NCBI GenBank assembly: GCA_963422735.1
Contig: OY730476.1
Span: forward strand, 192,001-256,000
Source: Candidatus Latescibacterota bacterium
GTDB taxonomy: Bacteria > Latescibacterota > UBA2968 > UBA8231
Length of the DNA: 64,000 nucleotides
Direction of reading: 5' to 3'
In this document: in pieces, positions 15,815 to 19,389 of the stretch
Numbering within the stretch: the stretch's first letter is position 1
How the letters are laid out: every line of letters starts with the position of its first letter
Notes under the pieces: model-generated
Told to the model about the DNA's origin: nothing
The model's database searches: none
Seen by the model: the letters and a program-made list of their open reading frames with translations, nothing else
Program-made: the position numbers and the translations under genes

Positions 15815-15877
15815 TGAAATAGCAGTACGCGCTCTAACTAAATTGGATAGCGAGAAGATGCTGTGGCTGTAACAATT

Positions 15878-16240
15878 ATGCGTACGGTGCGGCCTAGTCC
15901 GCAATGGCAAGACAGCTTAATCCGGCTAGAGAGCGGCCAGCGGGTCGTGGTGGATGCCGAGGAAACTTGGTCGCCGGACATGCGCAACCAAATCGCTTGG
16001 TGCGGTGCCGACGGCTTGTACAACCTGCCCGCAGACTCGGAGTACTTACTGCCGGGGGCCAATGTCGGTGCGCTCGTGGCGCGCATTGGCGACGACGGGC
16101 CGATCTTTGCCATGGGCAGCCGCTACGACTTTATCGCCGACCGCGCGGGCATTCTGCATTTGGCCATGAACGAAAACCCGAGCTTCAACAACCAAGCTGG
16201 CAAAATCGTCGCCCAAATCATCGTCTTTAGCCAACCATGA
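15878..16240 (+). CDS. Hypothetical protein with LecA/PA-IL-like beta-sandwich pattern
   Basis: WQDS..L..GQRV, GALVARIG..GPIF..G, GILHLAMNE, NNQAG; no signal peptide. Confidence 0.55.
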   Translation: MRTVRPSPQWQDSLIRLESGQRVVVDAEETWSPDMRNQIAWCGADGLYNLPADSEYLLPGANVGALVARIGDDGPIFAMGSRYDFIADRAGILHLAMNENPSFNNQAGKIVAQIIVFSQP

Positions 16241-17277
16241 GCCTCGCTATAAGCGCGGCGACCGCAGCCTATTTGCGCGCTGGGCATCCGCCTGTCCGTG
16301 CGATCACGCCGCTCGCCGAGGGGGTCTGGCGCGTCGAAGACGCAGACGGTCGCAAGGTTGTGGTCAAGCATCAGCTCTTCGGGTGGCTGACGCAGGGTAC
16401 GGCTTACGACCTGTTGGAGGTCGAGCGCGATGTGCTCGGCCTCTTGCACAGAGCGGGTTGTCCGGTGCCGGCCGTGCTGGGTATCGATCAGGAGGCGCAT
16501 TGCATTTTTTTACAATGGGTCGGTGATCGCACCCTTGACGACGCGATCCAAGCCGGGGAGCGGGCGGCGACGCGACAGGCGATTGTAGGGCTATGCGCGA
16601 TTGAAAGGGTGTGCGCCCAGCACTTGGATCAGCTAGCATCGCGGGTCGTGCCAGCGGCCGGCCGCGCCGCGCTGATAGCGGTGTGGGACGAGGTAGGGAC
16701 GCGGGGCCGCGAAGGGCTAGAGCAGTTGTTCGGTCGCCTCGGGCAACCCTCTGACGCGACGGAGGCACTGCGGCTGCTAGAAGAAATGCACCGCTGGCTG
16801 GCCGGGCGTCCGCCTGTGCTGGGAAGCACCGACTACAACGCCCGCAACGCCGTCGTTGACCCAGAGGGGAAGAGAGTGCGCTTCCTCGAATTTGCCAAGA
16901 TCGGCTGGGACTGGACGGAACGGCGCTTGACTCAGTATACTACTAGTATGGGCAGTGGCCGACAGAACGGGCGCATGCGCTCGCTGCTGGACGCGCCCGC
17001 AGCGCGTTTGTATGCCGAGGTGTCCGAGTGCAGCGACGGGGCTCGTGCGCTCGACTATCACCGAATCTTTTTTCTTTTAAACAGCGCGGCCCTGTTGTGC
17101 GCGGCCCTCGACGGCGAGCCGTACGCGCTGGCCCTGCGCCAACGCTGGAAAAGACCCTATGCGCGGCTGCGACAATGCGCGGCTATGCTGGCCGAGGACC
17201 TGAGCGCAGACCTAAGTGCGGCCGAGTTTAGGGGCCGGTTGCAGTTTTGTTTGTCACCACGAGGAGGAACCCTATGA
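16237..17277 (+). CDS. Aminoglycoside phosphotransferase/kinase-like protein
   Basis: VVVK, GCPVPAVL, STDYNARN (catalytic-loop-like), FLEFAKIG; ATGA-coupled to both neighbours. Confidence 0.6.
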   Translation: MSLAISAATAAYLRAGHPPVRAITPLAEGVWRVEDADGRKVVVKHQLFGWLTQGTAYDLLEVERDVLGLLHRAGCPVPAVLGIDQEAHCIFLQWVGDRTLDDAIQAGERAATRQAIVGLCAIERVCAQHLDQLASRVVPAAGRAALIAVWDEVGTRGREGLEQLFGRLGQPSDATEALRLLEEMHRWLAGRPPVLGSTDYNARNAVVDPEGKRVRFLEFAKIGWDWTERRLTQYTTSMGSGRQNGRMRSLLDAPAARLYAEVSECSDGARALDYHRIFFLLNSAALLCAALDGEPYALALRQRWKRPYARLRQCAAMLAEDLSADLSAAEFRGRLQFCLSPRGGTL

Positions 17278-17540
17278 GCGAGTGGAACACTCTCGACTTC
17301 AAGCCCCGGGCCCGGGGTATGATCATCGGCGATATTCCCTGGCTGGCGCGCATAGCCGACAAAGCGCGGGCGCACCAGCAGCAACGCATCGGCGACTACG
17401 TATTTCCCTGACCGGCCGACAAGCACTTCCTGGAGGAAGTGGAGCTAACAGCCGCAGCATTCGAGGAGATGGTGGCCGCGTCCGAAGACGACGATGCACT
17501 GATCGAAAAAATGAAAGCGCACTTGGCCAGAAAGCACTAG
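17274..17540 (+). CDS. DUF5069-family protein, candidate selenoprotein (in-frame TGA at codon 46)
   Basis: GAGGAGG RBS, ATG 17274; WLARIADKARAHQQQRIGDYVFP-TGA(17409..17411)-PADKHFLEEV...; frame continues 42 codons to TAG; downstream hairpin. Confidence 0.75.
17412..17446 (+). promoter_or_regulatory. Putative bacterial SECIS element
   Basis: CACTTCC-TGGA-GGAAGTG hairpin (17424..17441); G-containing loop begins 20 nt after the TGA. Confidence 0.6.
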
Positions 17541-17541
17541 C

Positions 17542-18428
17542 ATGAGCACCTCAGAGCAAACAGTACGCACGCCAAAGCGGAGGGTCCGGGAGTTAGAGGT
17601 GGAGGTCGTCCAAGTGCGCCGCGACACTCCAGACACTACCACGCTCTTTATGTCCGCTGGCGACGAACCGGTCGAATACCAAGCCGGCCACTTCTGCACC
17701 ATTGATCCGCATCAGTTCGGCGAGTTGGAGCACTTCACCGCCTATTTAGAAGATCAAAAGGGGCAGCGCGAAAAGCCGCGGGCCTATTCCATGGCCTCTG
17801 CTCCGCACGAGCAGCACCTCGCCATCACGATCAAAGAGGAGCGCTACGAGAGCGGCCAGACGCCGTACCCGCCGCTGCTATCGCCGCTGCTGACTTATTA
17901 TATCCAAGGGGGCCGGCGGCTGGTCATCAGTGGTTTTACCGGGGCGTACACCTTTCCCGCCAATGTCTGCGAGCGCACCGATCACATTATTCACGTGTGC
18001 GCTGGCAGCGGCATAGTGCCCAACAGGAGCCTGATCAAAGAGAGCCTGCATCGCGGCGACCCGCTCCGGCATACCTTGCTGTTTAGCAACAAGACGCGCC
18101 GCGACATTATTTTCTACGAGGAATTTGAGGTACTGCGGGCGCAGTATCCCGACCAACTCGACGTGATCCACTGCATCACCCGCGAAGACCCGGTCGGCAT
18201 TCGCGGTGCCCGCAACGAGCGCATCTCTGAGAGCTTTTGCGCGAAGTTGCGCCCCATCCCTCCAAGGTGATGGCCTATAGCTGTGGCCCGGGCATCACGC
18301 CCTACGAGCGCCGGGCGGCCCGGGCCAAGGGCGAAGACCCGGAGCCGCGTTTCGTCGAAAACATGGTCGCGCTCTTGCGTGCACACGGGTTGGACAAAAA
18401 TCAGATCCGGCAGGAAAGCTGGGGCTGA
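17542..18428 (+). CDS. FAD/NAD(P)-binding oxidoreductase (FNR-like), single frameshift near 18230
   Basis: RAYSMAS, CAGSGIVP, LLFSNKT; the C-terminus AYSCGP...IRQESWG lies in another frame ending at 18428. Confidence 0.8.
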
Positions 18429-18432
18429 GCGA

Positions 18433-19389
18433 ATGAAGTTAATCGTGCAGATTCCCTGCTTTGACGAAGAGCAGACCCTGCCCGCTGTAATTCGCGACAT
18501 CCCGCGCCAAGTGCCTGGTATCGACCAAGTCGAAATTTTGGTCATCGACGACGGCTCCAGCGACCTCACCAGCGCAGTGGCCCACGAGTGCGGCGCGGAT
18601 CACATAATCCGCTTCCCGCACAACCGAGGGCTGGGCCAAGCCTTTAAGGCCGGTATTGACGCTTGTCTCCGGCTGGGGGCCGACATCATCGTCAATACCG
18701 ACGGCGACAACCAGTACTACGGCGGCGACATTGGCAAGTTAGTCGCGCCCATCCTCTGCGGCCGGGCCGACATGGTCATTGGCGACCGGCAGACGCAGGC
18801 CATTGCCCACTTTTCCGCCCTCAAGCGCTACCTACAGGGCTTGGGCAGCCGGGTGATTAGCCGCCTCGCCGGCTTACAGGTGCCGGACGTGGCCAGCGGC
18901 TTCCGCGCCTTTAGCCGCGAGTGCGCGCTCCAGCTTTCGACCTTTACCAATTTCGACCACACGGCCGAGCACGTGATCGAAGCCGGATACAGAAACTTGG
19001 CCGTGACCTCTGTCGCGGTCCGCACCAACCCCAAGACGCGCGAATCGCGCCTCTTTTCCAACATCGGCACGTTTGTCTTCAAATCCGGGGAGATCAGTTT
19101 GCGCACCTATGCGCGCTACGCCGCGCTTAAGATATTTGCCATCTGCGGCATTTTGACCTTTGTCGCGGGCTTTTGCCTCGGCGTGCGCTTTCTCTACTTC
19201 TTCTTTTTTACTGACGAAGGGGGGCTGCACGTGCAGTCGCTTATTTTGGCAGCGGTTCTGCTGTTGGCCGGGTTTCAGATGGTTCTCACCGGCATCATAG
19301 CCGATTTGATCGCCACCAATAGGGATTTGCTCGAAGATGCGTTGCAGCGGGTCAAAAAGTTGGAATTGCGCGGTACGAACAAAAAATAA
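18433..19389 (+). CDS. Glycosyltransferase family 2 (DPM-synthase-like)
   Basis: QIPCFDEE, VIDDGSSD, NRGLG, TDGDNQY, SGFRAFSR; two C-terminal TM helices. Confidence 0.92.
   Translation: MKLIVQIPCFDEEQTLPAVIRDIPRQVPGIDQVEILVIDDGSSDLTSAVAHECGADHIIRFPHNRGLGQAFKAGIDACLRLGADIIVNTDGDNQYYGGDIGKLVAPILCGRADMVIGDRQTQAIAHFSALKRYLQGLGSRVISRLAGLQVPDVASGFRAFSRECALQLSTFTNFDHTAEHVIEAGYRNLAVTSVAVRTNPKTRESRLFSNIGTFVFKSGEISLRTYARYAALKIFAICGILTFVAGFCLGVRFLYFFFFTDEGGLHVQSLILAAVLLLAGFQMVLTGIIADLIATNRDLLEDALQRVKKLELRGTNKK

Follow-up and report, generated by a model that had tools for sequence, protein, structure and literature searches.

Does an in-frame TGA codon in a short bacterial gene end the protein, or is it read as selenocysteine (Sec)? 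The question is raised by a small gene of the DUF5069 family in a 64,000-nt stretch of DNA from a Candidatus Latescibacterota bacterium (GenBank assembly GCA_963422735.1, contig OY730476.1, positions 192,001 to 256,000 of the forward strand), which we refer to as the window and whose own numbering, starting at its first letter, is used below. An original prediction, made from the letters of the window without database searches, had proposed an unannotated Sec protein of 88 amino acids (aa) at this locus. The comparative evidence supports this proposal, and on the strength of sequence comparison we consider it very probable that positions 17274-17540 (+ strand) hold a genuine, intact Sec-encoding gene with an 88-residue product.

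A short DUF5069 gene with an in-frame TGA

The gene (MSEW...GDYVFP-U-PADKHF...ARKH, with U for Sec) was delimited by translation, by its match to the Pfam family PF16798 and by its homologs. It starts with ATG at 17274, ends with TAG at 17538-17540 and comprises 88 codons, of which codon 46 (17409-17411, + strand) is the in-frame TGA, taken as Sec from its alignment to an invariant cysteine (Cys) and from the agreement of contigs from other sequencing runs. The frame reads RIGDYVFP, TGA, PADKHFLEE, with 42 sense codons between the TGA and the TAG. A Shine-Dalgarno-like GAGGAGG (17261-17267, + strand), found by direct reading of the sequence, lies 6 nt 5' of the ATG. The stop codon of the upstream open reading frame (ORF; 16237-17277) overlaps the start of the Sec gene as ATGA, and the downstream ORF begins at 17542, 1 nt beyond the Sec-gene stop. 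The strong ribosome-binding site, the translational coupling on both sides and the GDYVFP-TGA-PADKHF frame with its 42 further sense codons are thus all present as originally claimed. A TTG at 17247 was considered as an alternative start and rejected, because the homologs have their first residues at the MSEW-type sequence and because the ribosome-binding site lies ahead of 17274.

Compared with Pfam, the 88-residue read-through product matches PF16798 (DUF5069) with an E-value of 9.3e-13 and a score of 48.9 bits (cut-off 27), which places it in the family named in the prediction; no NCBIfam model was matched (E <= 0.01). The Pfam match aligns residues 11-86 to positions 4-79 of the 133-position profile and runs across the TGA; since only these profile positions are covered, the product represents a short form of DUF5069. 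We found 48 full-length homologs of about 89 residues (58-72% identity) in a large protein collection, and the column of the TGA holds Cys in all 48 of them, so that the TGA does sit where a Cys had been expected. In alignment A1, which has 52 rows, the same column is at least 90% Cys. Behind it, residues A48, D49, F52, L53 and F63 are conserved among the Cys homologs. A search of solved structures with the family profile gave one match, PDB 3omd (E 3.6e-11), a 145-residue uncharacterised DUF5069 protein from Leptospirillum rubarum whose motif GEYTYNCPLDQ fits the GEYxYxCPxD pattern on which the prediction had leaned. The window's protein and 3omd share the family by sequence, the fold (judged on the model of a Cys homolog) and the motif, but 3omd belongs to the long form, its C-terminus extending for about 55 more residues, and it carries Cys instead of Sec.

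Orthologs (E <= 1.3e-18) were detected in 54 of the 61 genomes of the same class, representing four families and 15 genera, with weak paralog matches only in the remaining seven. Contrary to the concern voiced with the original prediction that close relatives might all carry TGC or TGT, exactly one TGA is present in 51 of the 54 orthologs and none in the other three, which are Cys carriers; among the 48 loci that were fetched, a stop aligns to codon 46 in 45 and Cys in three. Two other sequencing runs are informative on the second concern, a base error in the reads. A contig of run X2, which extends over the entire stretch, differs by one substitution and one indel, a contig of run X6 shows seven substitutions, and none of these differences falls at 17409-17411. 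As both contigs show the same TGA, neither an error in base calling nor a nonsense mutation private to this genome can explain it.

The public protein records of this gene reflect the TGA as well. Among shorter proteins, 28 of 31 matches (45 aa; P0053-P0080) end exactly at ...Y[VL][FY]P, with the gene-caller stop placed at the TGA, and two further matches (P0081-P0082) correspond to the 33-aa ORF of the tail. The nearest relatives (93-98% identity) are represented only by 45-residue stubs in a collection of 5.8 billion proteins, and one stub carries the NCBI label ‘hypothetical protein’; the complete Sec form is thus annotated nowhere. Another public product, 49 residues long, ends at the TGA site. 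A protein of 76 residues (P0051) resembles the Sec protein at its start, for about 31 residues, and then reads on in frame +1 of that DNA; either a frameshift in a relative or faulty gene calling may account for it.

Judged by record titles, the Sec forms belong to metagenome-assembled genomes labelled Latescibacterota and Gemmatimonadota, plus single records labelled Planctomycetota and Alphaproteobacteria, and Cys forms also occur in Poribacteria, Chloroflexota, Handelsmanbacteria and Opitutales. Four changes between Sec and Cys are needed on a quick tree with 104 rows (71 Sec and 33 Cys, including genome duplicates), which is poorly resolved; at least two changes are forced by well-supported branches. 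The Cys forms of one genus (g8) are nested among Sec forms.

The genome also has the Sec machinery whose presence the prediction had proposed to confirm. The genes selA (564 bits), selB (354 bits) and selD (374 bits) all score above curated cut-offs, a tRNA-SeC(tca), the product of selC, was detected by aragorn, and selD is itself of the Sec type with an in-frame TGA at GG-U-ASK. Further genome analysis revealed an FdhA-like gene (G000:C1:452137-452871, - strand) with a TGA in CSRA-U-HAPT, corresponding to a U-HxP motif, and a SelW-like gene (G000:C1:3591461-3591676, - strand) with a TGA in CSA-U-G, corresponding to CxxU. Both have a hairpin after the TGA and are likely two further selenoprotein genes of the same genome.

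These genes bear on the alternative that the UGA is read through without Sec, either by a near-cognate tRNA inserting Trp or Cys or by a local reassignment of the codon, with the downstream hairpin merely acting as a stimulator. UGA-C is a leaky stop context, and one public product of 81 residues has W at the TGA site, which reflects the code-4 translation of the gene caller. However, TGA serves as an ordinary stop elsewhere, for instance at the end of the upstream ORF (16237-17277), and a genome with the complete Sec machinery, the GG-U-ASK of selD, the U-HxP of the FdhA-like gene and the CxxU of the SelW-like gene argues for Sec itself. In addition, the site alternates with Cys only, which is the usual signature of Sec, and no selA match was obtained in G036 (93% complete), the only Cys-type genome of this family that was tested; the two other Cys-type genomes of the class, G037 and G053, retain selA. 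Taken together, read-through by anything other than Sec is very unlikely.

Conservation behind the TGA points to translation in the same frame. The downstream part follows the pattern PADxxFLEE...F..[MI]V...D..[LV]I..MK.H, and codons 48-49 are constant as GCN GAY (Ala-Asp) with variable third bases. Across 59 distinct Sec-type sequences, the ratio of nonsynonymous to synonymous polymorphism (pN/pS) amounts to 0.45 over 35 downstream codons and 0.26 over 38 upstream codons, both values being overestimates because pS (about 0.55-0.6) is near saturation. The in-frame conservation past the TGA that the prediction had suggested looking for is therefore found in the alignment as well as in the pN/pS of 0.45. 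It also bears on a possible split gene, in which a 45-residue peptide would end at the TGA and a separate 33-residue tail would start from GTG at 17439. Gene callers report exactly such 45-aa and 33-aa pieces, and a GTG-initiated ORF does exist at 17439-17540. What argues against this arrangement is the protein-level conservation of the nine intervening codons (PADKHFLEE): they align to the (nearly) invariant A48, D49, F52 and L53 of the Cys homologs, and their synonymous-site variation fits translation. The Cys forms, moreover, are single chains, and there is no apparent Shine-Dalgarno-like motif in the few bases before 17439. We regard a split gene as highly improbable.

The TGA might also be a true stop in a pseudogene, if a former Cys codon had mutated or had been miscalled. 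This would take a single-base change from TGC or TGT, and the same assembly does have an indel in the next gene, but the explanation is contradicted by the conservation of the TGA (51 of 54 orthologs in four families, and 50 distinct Sec-type sequences), by the agreeing contigs of the two other runs and by the open and conserved downstream frame, and can practically be dismissed.

DUF5069 proteins of other kinds were observed alongside the short form. PF16798 is present in 133 of the 168 genomes of the phylum, in a survey that lists mostly long paralogs. The genome of the window encodes a 462-residue protein of three DUF5069 repeats (G000:C1:4079889-4081274), in which the motif reads GE[FY]xxG[EA]DS and Gly replaces the Sec/Cys of the short form; proteins of this kind, with 430-480 residues, are found in most genomes of the class. 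In another genus, a long-form DUF5069 gene of about 139 codons (L137, G133:C322, 400-840) has a TGA at the same motif (DYVYN-U-SLDKRLF), a frame that stays open for 92 codons beyond the TGA and a longer stem-loop predicted downstream. This single example may represent a second Sec-type branch of DUF5069.

A hairpin behind the TGA as candidate SECIS element

A hairpin of the selenocysteine insertion sequence (SECIS) type lies on the + strand within the coding region, with arms ACUUCC (17425-17430) and GGAAGU (17435-17440) enclosing the loop UGGA (17431-17434), as delimited by RNAalifold, by pair counts and by the contrast between Sec-type and Cys-type sequences. This 6-bp hairpin (17425-17440; core UUCC-UGGA-GGAA) starts 13 nt past the TGA, and its first loop base is the 20th nt. 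In the genome of the window, RNAfold adds a seventh pair, C17424-G17441, giving the arms CACUUCC (17424-17430) and GGAAGUG (17435-17441). Folding thus bears out the hairpin described from the sequence alone, with 7 bp and a G-containing loop starting 20 nt after the TGA.

Comparison across genomes gives the hairpin its weight. RNAalifold returned a 6-bp consensus stem with the loop UGGA on 37 distinct Sec-type sequences, and all six pairs can form in each of the 37. Of the cells in the pair counts, 95% are paired, compared to 85.4% in shuffles, with none of 500 shuffles reaching the observed value, a control that overstates the case as the sequences are related and not independent. At one stem pair, 25 sequences have CG and 12 have GC, and another is AU in 22 and GU in 15; the compensatory change between CG and GC separates two clades and was probably a single event.

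The contrast between Sec and Cys types was drawn from 122 loci (48 from the genome set and 74 named records), of which one, L123, is cut by a contig end and was dropped. Many of these loci are the same genome twice, and they were therefore reduced to 81 distinct stretches of 66 nt. All six pairs are present in 49 of the 50 Sec-type sequences, 47 of which have the core UUCCUGGAGGAA, whereas the 31 Cys-type sequences include only two with all six pairs and one with the core UUCCUGGAGGAA. Of the three Sec-type exceptions to the core, two have UUUCUGGAGGAA, in which pairing is kept by a U-G wobble, and one has UUCCUGGAUGGA. The core 12-mer occurs once in the 4.95-Mb genome (0.48 expected). The residues encoded at the hairpin are F-L-E-E in the Sec forms, and FLQE, FLQK, FLRE, LLEA and others in the Cys forms. 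The near-invariant UUCCUGGAGGAA encoding F-L-E-E in Sec-type genes, set against the variable codons of Cys-type genes, shows at the level of sequence that the hairpin apparently constrains the protein. At several Chloroflexota Cys-type loci (L129, L133 and others), we observed a different palindrome, TGCCTCGAGGCA, about 18 nt past the Cys codon, where Sec-type genes have their hairpin. This palindrome may be what is left of an earlier SECIS element, or it may follow from the xLEx residues encoded there.

The FdhA-like gene of the same genome offers a comparison within the organism. Counted from the U of the UGA, the 7-bp stem of its hairpin begins at nt 15 and the loop GGUCU at nt 22; in the DUF5069 hairpin, the corresponding positions are nt 16-17 for the stem and nt 23 for the loop UGGA. 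The two hairpins have nearly the same geometry, and both have a G in the loop. The SECIS element of Escherichia coli fdhF is a bacterial SelB-binding hairpin. The DUF5069 element resembles it in being a coding-region hairpin about 11-13 nt past the UGA with a G in the apical loop and constrained downstream codons, but differs from it in having a perfect stem of 6-7 bp, the loop UGGA and no evident bulged U, and its binding of SelB is putative.

Several observations weigh against a SECIS element and a Sec gene at this locus. The folding energy is unremarkable: the 62-nt stretch has a z-score of -0.25, and 78 of 200 shuffles fold equally well or better. As energy alone does no better than chance, the significance of the hairpin comes only from the cross-genome comparison, in which the probably single compensatory event and the relatedness of the sequences limit what can be read from covariation and shuffling. 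The encoded residues account for some of the pairing, since five of the six pairs can still form in 12 of the 31 Cys-type sequences. The hairpin is short, with a stem of 6-7 bp and a 4-nt loop, and no Rfam SECIS family was matched in 17200-17600 (E <= 10), where the only row was a chance snoRNA. Finally, pN/pS is higher after the TGA than before it, at a pS near saturation.

We propose a mechanism on the basis of the comparative evidence. The ribosome would meet the UGA at codon 46, and SelB carrying Sec-tRNA(Sec) would bind the short hairpin inside the coding region (17425-17430 paired with 17435-17440, loop UGGA). Sec would then be inserted in place of termination, and 42 more codons would be translated.

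Neighbouring genes and a possible function

No function is given to DUF5069 in the annotations seen or in a full-text literature search. The fold was approached through the predicted model of a Cys homolog (P0002; predicted local distance difference test, pLDDT, 76), which was used in fold comparisons as a stand-in for the Sec protein of the window. The model consists of a short hairpin and four helices, and its Cys46 immediately precedes helix 47-55, at the N-terminal end of helix 2. It aligns to 3omd with a Foldseek TMq of 0.75, and with a VIA Z-score of 10.8 and a root-mean-square deviation of 3.0 over 82 residues. No thioredoxin-fold chain is among the matches listed for the model, although a missing match does not exclude one. 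The motif around the Sec/Cys is Y-x-[FY]-P-U/C-[PGA]-A-D. There is no second conserved Cys, and DUF5069 is therefore not a selenoprotein of the UxxC or CxxU type.

The Sec gene stands in a group of four genes on the + strand. The first gene of this module (15863-16240) encodes a 125-aa protein with weak PA-IL-like similarity (PF07828, E 0.002, 18.6 bits, below the cut-off of 22.5). It is followed by the gene of a 346-aa protein (16237-17277), which is predicted to be a phosphotransferase with the fold of aminoglycoside phosphotransferases (APH) and choline kinases, based on an AlphaFold model, Foldseek and invariant residues. No Pfam family and no PDB match by sequence were found for this protein. 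Its model (pLDDT 92.7) has the aminoglycoside/macrolide/choline-kinase fold, with the corramycin phosphotransferase 8ahd_A as top Foldseek match (E 2.6e-7) and 329 chains at E <= 0.001; the top matches are small-molecule phosphotransferases. The catalytic residues K44, E63, D199 and N204 are invariant in 34 sequences. As far as the model and these residues indicate, the 346-aa protein represents an unnamed kinase family tied to short DUF5069. In the whole f1-type clade its gene immediately precedes the DUF5069 gene, and the 125-aa, APH-like kinase and DUF5069 genes stay together in Sec and Cys forms alike.

Downstream of the Sec gene follows an FNR-like flavoprotein reductase gene (17542-18428), identified by a match to NAD_binding_1 and with weak, sub-cut-off NCBIfam similarity to PaaE/FNR-type reductases. 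In the window it is split into 17542-18270 and 18237-18428. The gene is intact in relatives (295-296 aa), and the contigs of runs X2 and X6 have an extra A behind 18231, so that the frameshift near this position is most likely an assembly indel (one missing base) and not the mark of a pseudogene. A 2147-nt contig from metatranscriptome run X15, from a relative that is about 90% alike, spans 16881-18600, reaching from the kinase gene across the Sec and FNR-like genes to the beginning of a glycosyltransferase gene. Co-transcription would agree with this contig, which is evidence neither of transcription nor of a single transcript.

A function may be sketched from these neighbours. The single Sec/Cys at the N-terminal end of helix 2 would form a reactive centre that is redox-active or binds a ligand or metal. 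The DUF5069 protein would work with the translationally coupled, APH-like small-molecule kinase encoded upstream, and the downstream FNR-like NAD(P)H flavoreductase, where present, might recycle the selenol. We infer only tentatively, and would not expect it to be the most probable outcome, that a reactive selenol serves a small-molecule pathway together with the kinase and is recycled by the flavoprotein. More doubtful still is a specific version for the four-gene module (PA-IL-like protein, APH-fold kinase, Sec protein and FNR-like reductase), in which a selenol without partner, at a helix N-terminus in a non-thioredoxin fold, would act on a phosphorylated small molecule or carry a chalcogen or metal, with NAD(P)H-dependent recycling via the flavoprotein.

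The functional proposals have several findings to contend with. The FNR-like gene is present at this place in many lineages but absent beside about half of the f1-type ones, families f2 and f4 have an rsmD-like neighbour instead, and the Chloroflexota and Poribacteria neighbourhoods share no gene with this locus. The sequence F-P-U-P-A-D-K has no Cys within three residues of the Sec, and the family has no other conserved Cys column. Besides 3omd, no fold relative was found with Foldseek against the PDB or with VIA-align against 48,161 chains, where the next Z-score was 3.9.

DUF5069 compared with known selenoprotein families

The recoding mechanism is the standard bacterial one; what is new is the selenoprotein family. 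PF16798/DUF5069 is absent from all rows of Table 1 of a 2026 review covering 119 families (PMC13188914), with the NF and TIGR rows compared through the NCBIfam search (E <= 0.01) and the cd, PTHR and COG rows by name only. Together with the lack of an NCBIfam match, this agrees with the view that the protein is not among the classic selenoprotein families. A full-text literature search gave no mention of ‘DUF5069’; supplementary family tables, which might list the family, lie outside this comparison. According to the available text of the respective sources, BSepDB gathers previously reported families only (PMC13326102), and the nine new deep-Sep families differ from DUF5069 (PMC12013277).

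The closest comparisons are with computationally predicted bacterial families that lack an assigned function and in which Sec and Cys forms are paired, such as DUF1858, DUF523 and GOS_B (PMC13188914). DUF5069 is similar to them in having a UGA at a conserved Cys, TGA orthologs in several organisms, a downstream stem-loop and products that are truncated in databases. It differs in that it corresponds to PF16798, has a single Sec without partner Cys (P-U-P-A-D) and, by the predicted model of a Cys homolog, a helical and probably non-thioredoxin fold, and in that its Sec form is found mainly in records titled Latescibacterota or Gemmatimonadota. GOS_A is another small family, for which the text available to us gives no detected domain and two Sec and 155 Cys forms (PMC2398784); it is likewise without domain in the accessible part of a 2022 review (PMC9312934). 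As far as these descriptions go, which are all that was compared, the likeness lies in the small size of both families, GOS_A having few Sec and many Cys forms. The two are probably different families, because GOS_A is listed there without a domain and the DUF5069 protein clearly matches PF16798.

The gene adds a family to the selenoprotein catalogue of 119 (2026) and corrects the annotation in dozens of Latescibacterota-type genomes where it is cut at the TGA. Bacterial SECIS models miss atypical elements and could usefully be tried on its very compact and almost invariant hairpin. The reading of the four-gene module, if true, would mean a new kind of selenoenzyme chemistry and a first function for DUF5069. 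For the family, a key residue is flagged in proteins that have a solved structure (3omd) but no function: the alternation of Sec and Cys, one of the few pointers that sequence alone provides, marks residue 46 (Y-x-Y-x-C-P-x-D) as the likely functional centre of DUF5069.

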